Assembly (NCBI GenBank): GCA_048882385.1
Contig: JBHLRQ010000070.1
Coordinates: 1-17,476, forward strand
Source: Candidatus Thorarchaeota archaeon
Lineage (GTDB): Archaea > Asgardarchaeota > Thorarchaeia > Thorarchaeales > Thorarchaeaceae
Reading direction: 5' to 3'
Length of the DNA stretch: 17,476 nucleotides
Below the pieces are notes generated by a model. It did not search any database. It had not been told where the DNA came from and worked only from the letters and a program-made list of their open reading frames with translations. Positions 1 through 5,260 of the stretch are shown one piece after another. Made by a program: the position numbers and the translations under genes. Each line of letters starts with the position of its first letter. The first letter of the stretch is position 1.

Positions 1-764
1 ATTGCATGACCAATAGTGTGGCCAAAGTTCAATATCTCTCTCTTGCCTTTTTCTTCTCTCTCATCCGACTTGATAATTTGCGCTTTATTCCTAAGTGCTC
101 TCTCCACAACTTTTGTGAGGACTGTAGGATTTCTGAGAATTATTTCATTTCTGCTCTCAACAAGAATATGGAAAAGCTCTGGATCCATTGTCATACCATA
201 CTTAATGACTTCTGCTAGTCCTGCTAGAAAATCATTGGTCGGTAGTGAATTGAGGGTACAAACATCAACTATTACCGCATGAGGTTGATAGAATGTCCCA
301 ACAAGATTCTTTCCTTCACTTAGATTGACTCCTGTTTTTCCACCTATGGACGAATCGACCTGTGCCAAAAGAGTTGTAGGCACCTGAATTAGCATCATCC
401 CTCTTTTGAATGTTGAAGCGACAAACCCCGCGATATCACCAATAACACCTCCTCCGAGTGCAATTATTGCATCTGAACGTGTTGCTAGGTTTTCACTCAA
501 GCAAGCATACAAGTCTTTCACTGAATCCAGAGTTTTTACAGACTCACCAGCTTGCAGGATTATCGGTATGACTTCTATCTCTGAGGTGTTTAGTTTTCCA
601 ACTATAGAATCGAGGTAGAATGGAGTAATAACATCATCCGAAATTATGAATGCTCTGTCAAATGAGCCTTTTAGAATTTCATTGATTTCCACAATCAAAT
701 TCTGTCCAATATATACAGGATATTCTCTACTTTCCGTATATACATCGAATCTAGAATAAATCAT
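1..764 (-). CDS. aroB: 3-dehydroquinate synthase, AroB type (3' end runs off the window; absent from the ORF track)
   Basis: Manual translation from ATG at 764: MIYSRFDVYTESREYPVYIG...AGESVKT...ALGGGVIGDIAGFVASTFKRG...QVPTTLLAQVDSSIGGKTGVN...GKNLVGTFYQP...GLAEVIKYG...LNFGHTIGHA. These are diagnostic AroB motifs. The start overlaps the tyrA stop (ATGA, 764-761). Confidence 0.95.
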   Translation of the reverse strand, partial: MIYSRFDVYTESREYPVYIGQNLIVEINEILKGSFDRAFIISDDVITPFYLDSIVGKLNTSEIEVIPIILQAGESVKTLDSVKDLYACLSENLATRSDAIIALGGGVIGDIAGFVASTFKRGMMLIQVPTTLLAQVDSSIGGKTGVNLSEGKNLVGTFYQPHAVIVDVCTLNSLPTNDFLAGLAEVIKYGMTMDPELFHILVESRNEIILRNPTVLTKVVERALRNKAQIIKSDEREEKGKREILNFGHTIGHA

Positions 765-1615
765 GATTTGCATCCCTCCTCCATGACCTTGAGCACTCGG
801 TACATTTCTTGGTACTTGTCTTCAAGACTTAGTTTCTCTTCCAAGCTTGACTTGATATCAGAATATGATTTCTCGAATCCTTCAATGTCTGAAGTCAGCC
901 GTTTCACTTCTTCGATAGTCTTGGTCAGCAACTTCTGCAAGATCTCAGTGAAGTATGCATTTTCCTTGTGGAGTGCACGATGGAATTCGGATGTGTGTGA
1001 CATGATACTTCCTGTTAGCATGAATTGAACTGCGAATGTTGTACCACTGAGTTGTTGCATTAGAGAAATGTCTTCATCTTTCAAAACTGACGCAAAAATC
1101 ATATTCATGAAATAGGGAAGTGATAATGTTAGTGCCATTATACGGTCATGAATATCTGCTTCAACAACGATAATCTGTGATTTTGGAAATAGACTTTCAG
1201 CTACGTTTCTCTCTTCATGACTATCATGAACTGGAATTAACGCATATCTCTTCTTGAGAGTACTCGCACCCGGACCAAACAGAGGATGTATTGATAGTGG
1301 GCGAATATTGTCATGAGCTATTTTTCTCAGATCTTCTATTATGTTCGACTTTAGTGTTGATATCTCACAGAGAATAGAATTCTCTCTCATGTAAGGAATA
1401 ACTTCTCGAATGACTGATGTAGTGTCCTCCATTGGTACTGATATCAATACAACATCTGCTTTAGCTGCTGCCACATTGTTTGAAATCAACTCGAATCCTG
1501 ATTTACCCCCATTTGCTTTTGGATCTGCAACCATCACAGAATGACCAACTTCGAGGAAGTGATTAACTAACCATTTTCCCATTCTACCCGCTCCACCAAT
1601 AACTGCTATCTTCAT
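761..1615 (-). CDS. tyrA: Prephenate/arogenate dehydrogenase (TyrA family)
   Basis: N-terminal Rossmann motif IAVIGGAGRMG, ISVP, EISTLK, SIHPLFGP and HDRIMA motifs. ATGA overlap with the upstream gene at 1615-1612. Confidence 0.9.
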   Translation of the reverse strand: MKIAVIGGAGRMGKWLVNHFLEVGHSVMVADPKANGGKSGFELISNNVAAAKADVVLISVPMEDTTSVIREVIPYMRENSILCEISTLKSNIIEDLRKIAHDNIRPLSIHPLFGPGASTLKKRYALIPVHDSHEERNVAESLFPKSQIIVVEADIHDRIMALTLSLPYFMNMIFASVLKDEDISLMQQLSGTTFAVQFMLTGSIMSHTSEFHRALHKENAYFTEILQKLLTKTIEEVKRLTSDIEGFEKSYSDIKSSLEEKLSLEDKYQEMYRVLKVMEEGCKS

Positions 1616-3009
1616 CCTAGAAACTCCTCCATCCTCTTTGCAGCTTCAACAAGAATGTCCTCAGGTTGGCACACTGAGATTCTGAAAAAACGAGAGTATT
1701 CTTGTCCATAAGCTGTACCGGGCACAACTGCAACTCCCTGTTCATTGAGAAGCCTGTCTGTAAATTCAAGTCCATCCAAATTCTCATGGTTCAACTTGGG
1801 AAAGATATAGAATCCACCATCTGGTCTTAGAAGAGAGAGTGGGAGTTTTTCCAATTTGTCACATAATGCGATCTGTCTTTTCTCAATTATTGTGGCAAAT
1901 TCTTTGACTTCATCCAAAAGATCCAGTGCTTTCACTCCTGCATATTGAATGAACTCAGGTACACATGTGAGGGAAAGATTCTGTAATTTGATCATCTTCT
2001 GAACTGTTTCAGCATTAGAAATAGCATATCCAAGTCTGAACCCGGTCATCCCAAATGACTTTGAAAAGGAATTTACATAGATTTGATTGCACTCTGGAAA
2101 CTGAAGTGTGCTTGTGTGGGGTGTGAATGAAAATTCCGAGTATACCTCGTCACTAATAATACGAATTTCATTCTCAATTGAAATCTCTGCAATCTTTTCT
2201 ATTGTTGACTCATCTAGGATCTTTCCTGTTGGATTGCATGGACTGTTTAGTATTATCACTCTTGTGCTCTGATTGATGTTGTCTTCGAGTGATCCAATAT
2301 CCAGCTTCCATTCATTTTCCATTTGTGTTGAAACATGGACCGGTCTTCCACCGACCTGTCTGATGCAATCTGAGTAAGCTGGATAAGACGGATCAATGAT
2401 AATAGCTTCATCGCCTGGTCTGAGCGACACAGTTAGACCCAGGTACAAAGCAAATCGTCCACCAACAGTGGTTATAACTTGATCTACAGAGATATCCGTA
2501 CCAAGTACTCTATTCAGATGTTCAGCAATTTTTGTCCGAAGATCCTGGATTCCTGCTGACTGAGTATATCCACTCTGTCCACCTGCTATGGCATTTGTCA
2601 TTGATTCAACAACAGCAACTGGAGGACCAAAATCAGGCTCTCCCACTTCAAGATGAAAGACTTCTTTCCCTGCACTCTCCAGTTTTCTAGCCTTCACAAA
2701 GATGTGGTATGCAGTCTGGGGTACTTTAGTTTCAAAATGGCTTTCCTGTTTTCTTATGGACTCCGTTATGAGCTCATTGACAAGCCGTACCGCAAAATCA
2801 ATATCACTTGCATCTCTCCTACACTGTTCTACGACTTTTGCTTTGAGATTTCTTTCAACTTCTCTATCTACAAGTTCAATCCCTTTCTTAATCTTCTGAG
2901 CACCTATCCTTGCTGCAAGTTCACTCCTGCGACCTGCCAGGCTCACAATCTCCAACGTAAGTTGTTCCATCTCTTGTCTAAGGTCACCCAGGCTTACCTC
3001 TTCAGTCAT
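1612..3009 (-). CDS. Fusion of AroQ-type chorismate mutase (N-terminal ~90 aa) and class I/II PLP-dependent aminotransferase
   Basis: N-terminus LGDLRQE...RRSELAARIGAQK...VDREVE...ESIRKQ follows the AroQ pattern. C-terminus has GEPDF, NSPCNPTG, SDEVY and the PLP-lysine motif SFSKSFGMTGFRLG. SD AAGGAGG at 3026-3020. Confidence 0.9.
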   Translation of the reverse strand: MTEEVSLGDLRQEMEQLTLEIVSLAGRRSELAARIGAQKIKKGIELVDREVERNLKAKVVEQCRRDASDIDFAVRLVNELITESIRKQESHFETKVPQTAYHIFVKARKLESAGKEVFHLEVGEPDFGPPVAVVESMTNAIAGGQSGYTQSAGIQDLRTKIAEHLNRVLGTDISVDQVITTVGGRFALYLGLTVSLRPGDEAIIIDPSYPAYSDCIRQVGGRPVHVSTQMENEWKLDIGSLEDNINQSTRVIILNSPCNPTGKILDESTIEKIAEISIENEIRIISDEVYSEFSFTPHTSTLQFPECNQIYVNSFSKSFGMTGFRLGYAISNAETVQKMIKLQNLSLTCVPEFIQYAGVKALDLLDEVKEFATIIEKRQIALCDKLEKLPLSLLRPDGGFYIFPKLNHENLDGLEFTDRLLNEQGVAVVPGTAYGQEYSRFFRISVCQPEDILVEAAKRMEEFLG

Positions 3010-3092
3010 TGGACTATTTCCTCCTTTGTTACGCTACCTGAGCAACAATTATCGAGAGACCTTCCATTGTGTAGAATTGATTTTAGAGTCAT
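3006..3092 (-). CDS. Putative 28-aa upstream ORF (uORF3) whose TGA overlaps the chorismate mutase ATG
   Basis: ATG at 3092, MTLKSILHNGRSLDNCCSGSVTKEEIVQ*. ATGA overlap at 3009-3006. GGTGG lies 4 nt upstream of the ATG. Confidence 0.3.
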   Translation of the reverse strand: MTLKSILHNGRSLDNCCSGSVTKEEIVQ

Positions 3093-3108
3093 AGAACCAC
3101 CAAAACAA
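3049..3108 (-). CDS. Putative aromatic leader peptide 2 (uORF2), MFWWFYDSKINSTQWKVSR
   Basis: AGGTG-N7-TTG start followed by TTT TGG TGG TTC TAT, five consecutive aromatic codons. TAA stop at 3051-3049. Confidence 0.6.
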   Translation of the reverse strand: MFWWFYDSKINSTQWKVSR

Positions 3109-3132
3109 GTTACGACACCTATACAGCGTCGC
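3101..3132 (-). promoter_or_regulatory. Leader hairpin GCGACGCU-GUAUA-GGUGUCGU followed by U-rich AACUUGUUUU (candidate attenuator terminator and/or SD sequestrator of uORF2)
   Basis: 8-bp stem with three G-U pairs that work only on the minus-strand transcript. The loop and 3' arm contain AGGUG. Confidence 0.5.
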
Positions 3133-3156
3133 TAATCTTGACTAGCAGTCTATCAG

Positions 3157-3246
3157 CTAATAATAGCTATAATAGACGCCACTATACTGACAGTTTACTG
3201 TCAAGTATGTTCGAGTGGCAACTGCATTTTCCGTCAAGATTTTCAT
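3157..3246 (-). CDS. Putative Tyr-rich leader peptide 1 (uORF1), MKILTENAVATRTYLTVNCQYSGVYYSYY
   Basis: ATG at 3246 (alternative in-frame ATG at 3258), TAG at 3159-3157. 6 of 29 codons are Tyr, including 4 of the last 5. It lies upstream of the Tyr-branch genes. Confidence 0.7.
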   Translation of the reverse strand: MKILTENAVATRTYLTVNCQYSGVYYSYY

Positions 3247-3270
3247 TAAACTGTCCATCAGAAGTCTGAC

Positions 3271-3283
3271 CTAATATAGTTGG
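3271..3283 (-). promoter_or_regulatory. Possible TATA box of the aromatic operon
   Basis: Minus strand reads CCAACTATATTAG about 30 nt upstream of the uORF1 ATG, compatible with a near-leaderless transcript. Confidence 0.35.
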
Positions 3284-3367
3284 TGTTCAATGAGGAAAAT
3301 CCGCTCGTATAATGCATTAAGCTTAAGTGAGAATCAAAATACCTCATAATCTATTGAGGTCTTCATA

Positions 3368-5260
3368 TTGAGGATGCTACAGATTCACAGCGATGGCTTT
3401 GCCTATGAAGCCAAGAGAAAAGCACTGAAGAATGCAGAAGAAGTCAAAGAGAAGTTCTACAAGACTGATGACTCGTGCCTAGTCAATTTTATCGCTGCTG
3501 AAACTACAGATGCAAATGATGTAGCTAGTGCTGCAAAAGAAACTGCAGATATGATTGCCAGTGCCGCTGATGAGGTAAAAGAGAAAAATGTTGTAGTTTA
3601 TCCCTTTGTACATCTTAGCGAGAATCCTTCAAAGCCTAGTGTTGCCCTTAAGCTGTTGAAATCTGTGTCAAGAGACTTGGAAGTTCGAGGATTCAATGTA
3701 ATCCGTGTTCCATTCGGATGGTACAAAGCGTTTGAGCTTCATTGTAAAGGACATCCACTTGCAGAACGCTCAAAGGTTCTTGATGTGTCCAAGAAAATTG
3801 CTAAAGCTGCAGATGTCGAAGTCACTGAAGGAGAAGATCTCACTGCACTTGTTGCTGAAGAAAAAGCCTCATCAGCATTCTATATCATGGAACCAAATGG
3901 GAAAGTAACGGATGCAAGAGAGTTCGATTATTCCAAGTATAAGGAACTTGAGCTTTACATGAGATATGAAACTGCAAAAGACAGAATTGCTCGTGAACCA
4001 CCTGCACACATCGAGCTGATGAAACAGCTTGAACTAGTCGATTACGAGCCTGGTTCTGATGCGGGAAACTTCAGGTGGCCACCTCGAGGGCTTACTCTAA
4101 AGAAAGCAATTGAGGAGAGAGTTACTGCCGAGATGGTCGACTATGGTGCTCATGTACTTCAGACGCCTCTGATTTATGACTACCAACATCCCTCGCTGAA
4201 ATCATATCTCCAAAGATTTCCTTCTCGTCAATACGTTGTGAAATCAGGGGATCAAGACTATTTTGCTAGGTTCAGTGCATGCTTTGGACAATTCTTGCTT
4301 ATCTCCCAAGCAACTGTTTCACACAAGCAGTTACCCTTGAAGTTATTCGAGATTGCTCCATCTTTCCGGCGAGAGCAGAGCGGTGAACTAGCTGGAATGA
4401 GAAGATTAAGAGCATTCACGATGCCTGATATCCACGAAATCGTTGCTGATGAGAAGATGGCCAAAGCTGCTGTGATGAACCAGATAGAATTTGTTGAGAA
4501 ACTCCATATTGAACTAGAGGTTTCCTATGAAGTTTCATTTAGGGTTCTGAAAGAGTTCTATGAGAAAAACAAGAAATTCATGGAAAAGATAGCTGACCGG
4601 ATTGGGAAGCCAATTCTAATTGAGGTCTTTGACGAAAGATACGCATACTTCATCTTCAAGGGCGAATGGAATGTAGTTGATGCCCAGAAGAAGGCTGGCT
4701 GTCTTGGAACAATCCAAATCGATGTTGAAAATAGTGAACGCTTCAACATCACCTACGTTGACGAAGATGGCAAGGAGAAACACCCGCTCATTCTGCACAC
4801 TTCGCCATCTGGTGCTATCGAGAGGATCCTCTATGGGGTTCTAGAACAAGCATACAAGGATATGAAGAGTGGAAAGGTCCCGCACCTTCCCCTATGGATG
4901 ACTCCTGTTCAGGTGAGATTCGCACCAGTAGACGATAGTTACGTAGAATATTGTATTGAACTTGGAAAAACGCTTGATGCTGCAGGAATTCGATATGAGA
5001 TTGATGACAGATCACAAACAGTGGGCAAGAAAGTCCGATCTGCTGAGAAGCTCTGGATTCCTTACATTGTTGTCATTGGTGGGAAAGAAAAGAAGAGCCG
5101 AGAGCTATCGGTTCGAAGACGTGAGCTAAAGGATCAAGTGAATATGACAATTGACGATTTAGCAAAAGATGTAGAAGAGAAAACGAAATTTGCGCCCCAG
5201 CAACGGTTGCTTCTCCCGAATTTAGTTTCCAAGCAAGCAATCTTCTCAAGAGAAGTGTGA
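3368..5260 (+). CDS. thrS: Threonine--tRNA ligase, archaeal type with N-terminal editing domain
   Basis: Editing-domain motifs MRMLQIHSD, YPFVHLS, PFGWYKAF. Catalytic motifs RFSACFG, SFRREQSGE, RLRAFTMPDIH, ILHTSPSGAIER. C-terminal anticodon-binding domain. GAGGT-N7-TTG start. Confidence 0.97.
   Translation: MRMLQIHSDGFAYEAKRKALKNAEEVKEKFYKTDDSCLVNFIAAETTDANDVASAAKETADMIASAADEVKEKNVVVYPFVHLSENPSKPSVALKLLKSVSRDLEVRGFNVIRVPFGWYKAFELHCKGHPLAERSKVLDVSKKIAKAADVEVTEGEDLTALVAEEKASSAFYIMEPNGKVTDAREFDYSKYKELELYMRYETAKDRIAREPPAHIELMKQLELVDYEPGSDAGNFRWPPRGLTLKKAIEERVTAEMVDYGAHVLQTPLIYDYQHPSLKSYLQRFPSRQYVVKSGDQDYFARFSACFGQFLLISQATVSHKQLPLKLFEIAPSFRREQSGELAGMRRLRAFTMPDIHEIVADEKMAKAAVMNQIEFVEKLHIELEVSYEVSFRVLKEFYEKNKKFMEKIADRIGKPILIEVFDERYAYFIFKGEWNVVDAQKKAGCLGTIQIDVENSERFNITYVDEDGKEKHPLILHTSPSGAIERILYGVLEQAYKDMKSGKVPHLPLWMTPVQVRFAPVDDSYVEYCIELGKTLDAAGIRYEIDDRSQTVGKKVRSAEKLWIPYIVVIGGKEKKSRELSVRRRELKDQVNMTIDDLAKDVEEKTKFAPQQRLLLPNLVSKQAIFSREV

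Follow-up and report, generated by a model that had tools for sequence, protein, structure and literature searches.

Upstream of an operon for aromatic amino-acid synthesis in a Candidatus Thorarchaeota archaeon lies a leader built around a short upstream open reading frame, uORF1, that ends in a cluster of tyrosine (Tyr) codons. It was found in a stretch of 17,476 nucleotides (positions 1 to 17,476 of contig JBHLRQ010000070.1, assembly GCA_048882385.1), hereafter the window, immediately before the gene of a chorismate mutase-aminotransferase fusion (CM-AT), the first of the operon. Judging from sequence, we think it fairly probable that uORF1 is a translated Tyr-codon sensor that controls the operon. 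The leader combines a conserved open frame with a recurrent start-codon pattern, a Tyr cluster held in frame, two covarying helices (P1a and P2), a segment from the stop codon onward (the anti segment) that is complementary to two different partners, and a second frame, uORF2, whose stop overlaps the start of CM-AT.

The original prediction, made from the letters of the window, had described a 29-codon frame with six Tyr codons that stops 147 nucleotides (nt) before the chorismate mutase start and begins about 30 nt after a TATA-like box, and had assigned chorismate mutase, aminotransferase and prephenate dehydrogenase to the first two genes. We recover the frame on the minus strand, with TATATTA 25 nt before its ATG and 147 nt from its stop to the CM-AT ATG, and Pfam identifies the three enzymes (CM_2, Aminotran_1_2, PDH_N); the prediction's description holds on all points. 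The interpretation as a Tyr leader is supported by the comparisons below, and the leader appears larger than that prediction saw, comprising a promoter, uORF1 within a covarying fold, the two-way anti segment, uORF2 and a coupled operon start.

Results

A reading frame kept open, with its Tyr codons in frame

Unless stated otherwise, numbers refer to the 22 intact leaders found with an RNA model among the 86 genomes searched in the family. Frame 0 is open over 29-32 codons in all 22, and also in two more diverged leaders (genomes G047 and G054); frames +1 and +2 contain 1-7 stops each and are open in none of the 22. The window's peptide is MKILTENAVATRTYLTVNCQYSGVYYSYY, with one TAC and five TAT codons, five of the six falling within the last nine codons, and the 3' end of the frame reads TAT AGT GGC GTC TAT TAT AGC TAT TAT TAG. 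Taken as a single sequence, its Tyr richness is unremarkable: the original prediction had warned that TAT is common in AT-rich DNA, and by amino-acid clustering uORF1 ranks only about 39th among 5629 small upstream ORFs of the same genome, no more than expected by chance. It is sequence comparison across leaders, not composition, that sets uORF1 above chance.

At the 5' end, a TATAWWA box stands 24-26 nt upstream of codon 1 in every leader; the intervening spacer is unconserved up to 2 nt before codon 1, where conservation sets in again, and codon 1 is AUG or GUG. Codon 1 is ATG in 10 leaders, none of which has ATG at codon 5, and GTG in 12, all of which do; an AUG is thus found at codon 1 or codon 5, never at both and never at neither, and genus g25 holds both kinds. 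Archaeal TATA-to-start spacing would place codon 1 at the transcript 5' end, and uORF1 probably starts at or within about 3 nt of that end, as a leaderless frame. An in-frame ATG further upstream in the window (3258) would lengthen the peptide to 33 residues, but it probably lies upstream of the transcript, as it falls within the unconserved spacer at a distance of only 14 nt from the TATA box.

At the 3' end, the C-terminal motif (Y/F)SG-x-Y-x-Y is kept in frame (SGVYYSYY, SGYYSYSYSL, SGYYSYYL, SGSYSYRA, SGYYWYTL, SGSYSYGA), and TAY triplets in the last 12 codons are found 89 times in frame 0, never in frame +1 and four times in frame +2. Each leader has 3-6 Tyr codons clustered before the stop (3 in G047 and 2 in G054). 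TAC replaces TAT in five genomes (G075, G086, G083, G060, G087), the interspersed Ser codon alternates between AGC and AGT, and MAFFT, run without codon awareness, places indel blocks of 3, 3 and 6 nt within uORF1. The original prediction had counted homologous leaders without the frame or the Tyr codons as evidence against it; both are present in the 22 leaders and in the two diverged ones.

uORF1 is predicted to fold on itself

RNAalifold predicts a three-way junction in which the two ends of uORF1 are brought together by P1a and P1b, with P2 formed inside the frame and P3 by the Tyr codons and post-stop sequence (Table 1). P1a reads AUCUUGAC/GUCAAGAU in the window, CUCUCGAA/UUCGAGAG in G075 and CGUUUCGAU/AUCGAGACG in G088; across the 22 sequences, 3 of its 8 pairs are changed on both sides and 93% of cells are paired. 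P2 also carries compensatory changes (A-U to G-C in G013; GCC/GGC to ACC/GGU in genus g22), and its register is changed in G091 and G047. Over the whole fold, 89.4% of cells are paired versus 82.3% in shuffles and 39 cells show double changes, values each reached by 0 of 500 shuffles, and the covariation score is 0.302 versus 0.165 in shuffles and 0.05-0.08 with slid partners, in an alignment fitted to the RNA model and composed of related sequences. P1a and P2 are well supported by these comparisons across the 22 sequences. Within the window's genus (g1) covariation is sparse, the single compensatory pair being equalled by 66 of 500 shuffles. P3 is specific to this genus and cannot form in G088, G089 and G091, where the Tyr codons are kept.

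No known RNA family was recognised: Rfam (15) gave no match at gathering thresholds over the whole window, and at E<=10 over 2950-3420 only two chance-level matches, neither of them a T-box (RF00230). A T-box-like tRNA sensor had been considered, prompted by an invariant UUGGUGGUU block and by UAC/UAU in P2, and was rejected for want of an Rfam match; we read the UGGUG block as a ribosome-binding site and not as a T-box motif because it presents a Shine-Dalgarno (SD) sequence and an AUG followed by an ORF in 22 of 22 leaders. A TRAP-like site of (G/U)AG repeats was dropped since the UAG triplets are, by eye, irregularly spaced.

A second frame that ends where CM-AT begins

The invariant block UGGUG(G/A)U...AUG, in which UGGUG is followed after 4-9 nt by ATG in every leader, forms the ribosome-binding site (RBS2) of uORF2. 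This second frame has 25-52 codons and is barely conserved past the first of them, and its stop falls between -5 and +8 nt from the assigned CM-AT start in all 22 leaders, with an ATGA or TTGA overlap in 11; G047 and G054 show the same relation. A stop that tracks the next start while ORF length varies is a signature of translational coupling. SD-like strings stand upstream of the assigned CM-AT starts, 9 of which are TTG.

Between uORF1 and RBS2 lies a hairpin that is retained although its sequence and length differ in every species. The U run behind it, which stands before RBS2, is only 4 long or interrupted, and we found no anti-terminator pairing with an arm of this hairpin; a role as terminator is no more than a possibility.

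Two further observations concern this region. In the diverged leader of G047 (locus L084, G047:C28, oriented about 605-732), uORF2 holds a second Tyr-rich motif, VYFSGYYPP, like the CYSGFYYFIL C-terminus of uORF1, which may be a duplication of the sensor module. In genus g1, a conserved GTTGAACACCAAC block just upstream of the TATA box (3281-3292, minus strand) is complementary to a GUUUUGGUGGUUC block at RBS2 (3094-3106, minus strand) and is paired with it by RNAalifold (columns 2-14 with 200-213); other genera have (G)ACAAAG or GAGAAAG in its place. If transcription starts after the TATA box, the GTTGAACACCAAC block is outside the RNA, and the two blocks, separated by about 190 bp, might be DNA sites bound by a regulator, or a BRE-like element, or their complementarity might be coincidental.

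The anti segment and its two partners

The 27 nt from the uORF1 stop onward are complementary both to the first 22 nt of the predicted transcript (mean -13.5 kcal/mol, z -3.1 against shuffles) and to the RBS2 region (mean -14.1 kcal/mol, z -2.05 against shuffles). Strong pairing with RBS2 is predicted for 12 of the 22 leaders; it is weak in genera g22, g27 and g28 and in some leaders of g1. In several genera the P1a strand is immediately followed by UCAC(C), which is complementary to GGUGA. The double complementarity of the segment predicts two exclusive states: in the first, the uORF1 domain is closed and RBS2 free; in the second, the domain is open and RBS2 paired.

When the leaders were folded with ribosome footprints imposed, the mean unpaired probability of RBS2, which served as read-out, was 0.45 without a ribosome, 0.31 under a mask over the 5' end (lower in 17 of 22), 0.35 with a ribosome stalled at the first or last Tyr codon (lower in 14-16 of 22) and 0.44 with a ribosome at the uORF1 stop (lower in 10 of 22), in models that leave out co-transcriptional kinetics, ribosome queues and the steric cost of closing P1a around a stalled ribosome. 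Taken at face value, the folding suggests that a ribosome delayed on uORF1 closes RBS2. Masking the 5' part of uORF2 changed the accessibility of the CM-AT ribosome-binding site only from 0.43 to 0.54.

The leader accompanies CM-AT throughout one family

CM-AT orthologs are present in only 7 of 25 genomes searched in the window's genus, its own included, and in all 7 the leader is present, with a nucleotide identity of 78-83%. Mean column identity in this genus rises to 94% over the central 117 nt, versus only 50-63% identity for the adjacent proteins. A covariance model built from these seven leaders (R1) matched diverged copies in other genera, and a second model built from 11 sequences (R2; family search threshold E<=1) matched 23 of the 86 family genomes, in 6 genera: 22 intact leaders and one decayed copy. 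R2 found no match in 26 other families (a sample of 151 genomes of the phylum), and widening the search to the class gave nothing beyond the order-level set. An exact-pattern scan of contigs returned 6 loci, 4 of them in Thorarchaeota; the 2 others (Woesearchaeota and Mollicutes) were taken as chance matches of an AT-rich palindrome.

A search for the chorismate mutase (CM) domain only, which is independent of the leader, identified 24 genomes with the gene among the 86 of the family, including all 22 with intact leaders. The remaining two, G047 and G054, have their more diverged leaders in the same place, with the C-termini FYYF and FYHSY and a uORF2, so that a homologous leader is present in 24 of 24 family genomes with the CM-AT operon, across 7 genera. 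The decayed copy, the weakest R2 match (E 0.46; locus L076, G074:C148, oriented 1501-1604), has a degenerate TATA box, a uORF1 that stops after 4 codons and no RBS2, and the CM gene was not found in this 74%-complete genome; the copy precedes an unrelated gene that is by eye methyltransferase-like (VLDVGCGT-type motif). A BLAST search for a second copy of the leader in the window's genome gave only chance matches of 15-26 nt.

At three loci without the leader (G010:C110 and G004:C107 in genus g1, and G031:C85), aminotransferase matches reach the end of the CM region with 1-2 in-frame stops; these may be split or differently organised CM and aminotransferase genes.

The operon and its surroundings

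The CM-AT product has 465 residues. In relatives, DAHP synthase and a type I DHQase follow downstream of 3-dehydroquinate (DHQ) synthase, and the same five-gene ORF layout is found in six genomes from about five genera (g1, g22, g25, g26, g27, g28; one or two each); Pfam identifies the five genes as CM-AT, prephenate dehydrogenase, DHQ synthase, DAHP synthase and type I DHQase at loci L079 and L083. With DAHP synthase and prephenate dehydrogenase in one unit, this appears to be a Tyr-oriented aro operon, and its content resembles the aroF-tyrA unit. At the same two loci (genomes G088 and G013), the DAHP synthase, gene 4 of the operon, bears an N-terminal ferredoxin-like regulatory domain (DAHP_snth_FXD), and entry into the pathway may therefore also be under allosteric control at the protein level.

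Divergently to the operon, the window encodes a threonyl-tRNA synthetase with an archaea-specific editing domain (3368-5260, plus strand; Pfam), apparently starting at TTG 3368 (MRMLQIH...), to judge by the Pfam editing-domain profile, whose alignment begins at residue 1. Other genomes have a different gene upstream of the leader, and the leader therefore travels with the aro/tyr operon and not with the synthetase. No tRNA or tmRNA was found in the window. In the 95%-complete assembly of the window's genome (G000), tryptophan synthase alpha and histidinol dehydrogenase had no Pfam-family match, and the organism may lack tryptophan and histidine synthesis, or the genes may be unassembled.

Table 1. 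Features of the leader and the operon in the window
Feature	Position	Strand	Basis and remarks
TATA box TATATTA, putative leader promoter	3272..3278	-	TATAWWA in 22/22 leaders
uORF1, Tyr-rich leader peptide, 29 codons + stop	3157..3246	-	ATG 3246-3244, TAG 3159-3157
P1a, 5' strand AUCUUGAC, codons 3-5	3233..3240	-	Predicted to pair with 3142-3135; RNAalifold
P1b	3225-3221 with 3149-3145	-	RNAalifold; register shifts in other genera
P2 hairpin, long, within uORF1	3178..3219	-	RNAalifold, covariation
Tyr-codon cluster, codons 21, 25, 26, 28, 29, directly 5' of stop	3160..3186	-	Sequence
P3 hairpin, Tyr codons + post-stop sequence, genus-specific	3150..3175	-	Invariant in 7/7 genus g1 genomes
P1a, 3' strand GUCAAGAU, just past stop, within anti segment 3159-3133	3135..3142	-	RNAalifold
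Hairpin of variable sequence, then pyrimidine/U tract 3109-3102	3112..3132	-	Alignment
RBS2: SD-like GGUGGU + uORF2 AUG	3090..3101	-	Invariant columns
uORF2, 28 codons, stop TGA overlaps CM-AT ATG (ATGA)	3006..3092	-	Present in 22/22 leaders
CM-AT own SD AGGAGG, inside uORF2	3020..3025	-	Sequence
CM-AT, operon gene 1, ATG at 3009	1612..3009	-	Pfam CM_2 + Aminotran_1_2
Prephenate dehydrogenase	761..1615	-	Pfam PDH_N
3-dehydroquinate synthase, runs past window edge	3..773	-	Pfam

Discussion

We propose that the leader reads tyrosine supply through the ribosome. The transcript would probably begin at the uORF1 AUG or GUG, ribosomes loading on its 5' end without a leader, and each ribosome would reach the Tyr cluster near the end of the 29-32 codons, its transit time being set by charged tRNA-Tyr. 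The 5' part of uORF1 (P1a, P1b and P2) would pair with its own 3' part and with the 8-25 nt that follow the stop, and the post-stop anti segment could pair alternatively with RBS2, such that the position of the ribosome on uORF1 would select the helix and set translation of uORF2. As uORF2 ends on the CM-AT start, it could relay the decision either by termination-reinitiation or by occluding the CM-AT SD. The site of transcription start, translation of uORF1, stalling and the direction of the response are features that we infer.

The direction depends on what uORF2 does. Were uORF2 to feed ribosomes into CM-AT, closing RBS2 would yield less enzyme on starvation, which is the wrong sign; were it to occlude the SD of CM-AT, the sign would be right via a double negative. 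In this second case, a ribosome held on the Tyr codons of uORF1 would free the post-stop segment, which would shut RBS2; with uORF2 silent, the CM-AT SD would no longer be overrun by ribosomes and the operon would be translated. It is a tentative proposal, and one that we hold to be rather unlikely in this full form, that the domain Archaea has here its first amino-acid-sensing leader peptide and that this peptide acts as such a double-negative relay of two uORFs.

The wrong sign obtained with a feeding uORF2 is one of several points that weigh against a Tyr-codon sensor. Closing of RBS2 under the masks is seen in g1, g25 and g26 and is absent in g22, g27 and g28, and neither of two sets of ribosome-mask folds gave a consistent opening of RBS2 on stalling. 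The Tyr codons themselves are not immutable: their count is down to 3 in G094 and 2 in G054, and single positions are swapped for Phe, His, Gln, Ser or others among leaders. The original prediction had held that freely substituted Tyr codons would speak against it and had proposed TAT/TAC exchange as a check; the cluster as a whole stays in frame while single positions are replaced and only 2-3 Tyr codons remain in the most diverged leaders, and the exchange seen in five genomes does not occur at all within genus g1. There, identity is high at synonymous sites too, and a leader that is 94% identical with these sites included implies a strong constraint at the RNA level. Variation over the first 17 codons is not concentrated at the third position (entropy 0.83 at position 1 and 0.98 at each of positions 2 and 3) and codon differences among 7 representatives are 33 synonymous versus 222 nonsynonymous: by these measures there is no classical coding selection on uORF1 outside the C-terminus. 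All 24 leaders come from one family and, being kin, are not independent. Lastly, a noisy scan of the 5629 small ORFs found no convincing leader of this kind before other amino-acid genes of the window's genome, and no obvious Phe leader was found at the prephenate dehydratase gene, which is present on contig C187.

The lack of periodicity and the 33 versus 222 differences would mean that selection acts only on the frame, its start and its Tyr-rich end, and not on the peptide sequence. Such frame-only selection would be expected for a leader peptide and speaks against a small protein with a function; a Tyr-rich protein or peptide precursor with its own function is indeed very improbable, since the conserved frame and C-terminal motif that would speak for it are set against N-terminal two thirds without amino-acid constraint, an invariable place as the leading cistron of this one operon, within a stem that pairs the two ends of the frame, and no adjacent genes of modifying enzymes.

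The same absence of codon periodicity also fits a rival explanation, in which the leader is an RNA structure that regulates in cis, as a riboswitch or by binding a protein or a tRNA, and the open frame is incidental. The nucleotide identity of 94% within the genus, against 50-63% for the adjacent protein, and the predicted three-way junction with its covarying P1a and P2 fit this explanation. Nevertheless, the junction is not conserved in other genera, where P3 is absent and P1b shifted, while conservation does extend to the frame, the AUG at codon 1 or 5 and the Tyr codons in register; in every leader an ORF follows the invariant UGGUG..AUG block, which marks the block as a ribosome-binding site; and the Rfam searches, over the window at gathering thresholds and over 2950-3420 at E<=10, were negative. 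We therefore regard a purely structural element as improbable, though it is the best placed of the alternatives.

Slightly less probable still is an arrest peptide, which would act from within the ribosome: the C-terminal sequence C-x-Y-S-G-Y-Y-S-Y-Y-L would stall the ribosome at or near the stop from the exit tunnel, possibly with free tyrosine, and cover the anti segment. TnaC with tryptophan and the fungal arginine attenuator peptide are parallels. C-x-Y-S-G is kept in G091 and G047 though its RNA pairing partner changed, but it is missing from G054, the residues after SG vary (Y/F/V/I/S, then S/W/R/I), and its conservation is partly explained by the 3' strand of P2 (AGUGG). The stop lies 0-15 nt before the anti segment, so that a ribosome held there would mask it, and the stop mask is the only occupied state that leaves RBS2 about as open as in free RNA (0.44 versus 0.45), even raising its accessibility from 0.27 to 0.51 in genus g26. 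Yet sensors of this type need no enrichment in the sensed amino acid, and 3-6 Tyr codons cluster here.

A Tyr-codon sensor would have close counterparts in bacteria. Leaderless short ORFs with runs of cognate codons that act on translation are on record there (10.1101/834739; PMC4007540), and among them the leaderless polycysteine short ORFs of mycobacteria are Cys-responsive translational attenuators (bioRxiv 10.1101/834739). As far as the accessible part of that report describes them, the likeness lies in these features: a short ORF from an RUG at the transcript 5' end (predicted here), a run of end-product codons at the 3' end of the ORF, the ribosome as sensor, and base pairing that hides the SD region and controls the downstream genes (proposed here). 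In the mycobacterial systems, however, it is the tract of Cys codons that pairs with the next gene's SD, whereas the Thorarchaeota leader would mainly use its post-stop segment for RBS2: the best duplexes involve that segment and not the Tyr tract, the P3 3' strand beside the tract joining only in g1. The post-stop segment would in addition tie uORF1 back to its 5' end, and uORF2 is interposed between the proposed sensor and the gene of the enzyme. The Thorarchaeota leader, moreover, belongs to an archaeon and is known from sequence alone.

The classical transcription attenuators trpL, pheL and hisL (PMC4007540; 10.1101/834739) share with it, in the outline given by these sources, a short ORF rich in cognate codons before a biosynthetic operon and exclusive helices overlapping the end of the ORF. 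Unlike them, the Thorarchaeota leader has no clear intrinsic terminator, only a hairpin with 4 U or an interrupted pyrimidine tract. Archaeal termination signals differ from bacterial intrinsic terminators. Its regulatory codons would also lie between the competing strands and not within the first of them, its start is predicted to be leaderless, and its output would pass through a second uORF. Predicted leaderless leader peptides are described in Deinococcus deserti, at a 5'-AUG or 5'-GUG before amino-acid biosynthesis or tRNA synthetase genes (PMC4007540). Their predicted start at the very end of the transcript is like that of uORF1; they differ in being bacterial, in their predicted transcription attenuation and in that the consulted part of the report describes no second uORF (PMC4007540).

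More distant relatives share the principle that the position of a ribosome on an upstream ORF decides access to, or use of, a downstream initiation site. In ermC translational attenuation the drug is sensed through the nascent peptide. In the amino-acid response of GCN4 scanning and reinitiation at serial uORFs are tied to initiation-factor status, and GCN4, unlike the proposed leader, makes no use of RNA helices or hungry codons. In archaea transcription is coupled to translation and mRNAs are often leaderless, which makes leader-peptide attenuation plausible in this domain, although to our knowledge ribosome-mediated attenuation by leader peptides has been described only in bacteria, and we know of little on gene regulation in Asgard archaea. 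Ribosome profiling in Haloferax reported uORFs, none of which is given a leader-peptide attenuator function in the sections of the paper at hand (PMC7261190), and full-text literature searches for leader-peptide attenuation in archaea, in which subscription journals were thinly covered, gave only bacterial systems.

The leader would thus represent a known principle, the leader-peptide attenuator, in a new domain of life, with an unusual build: leaderless, self-enclosed and relayed via a second uORF. It also illustrates that one and the same object can give a conserved 'structured RNA' signal and be a conserved uORF, which bears on scans that sort intergenic conservation into riboswitch or peptide. 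The leader is a concrete, conserved and sequence-defined candidate with clear mutational predictions for the start codons, the Tyr codons, P1a, the anti segment and uORF2. Should the double-negative relay prove true, the archaeal lineage nearest to eukaryotes would have a counterpart of serial-uORF control that is based on structure.

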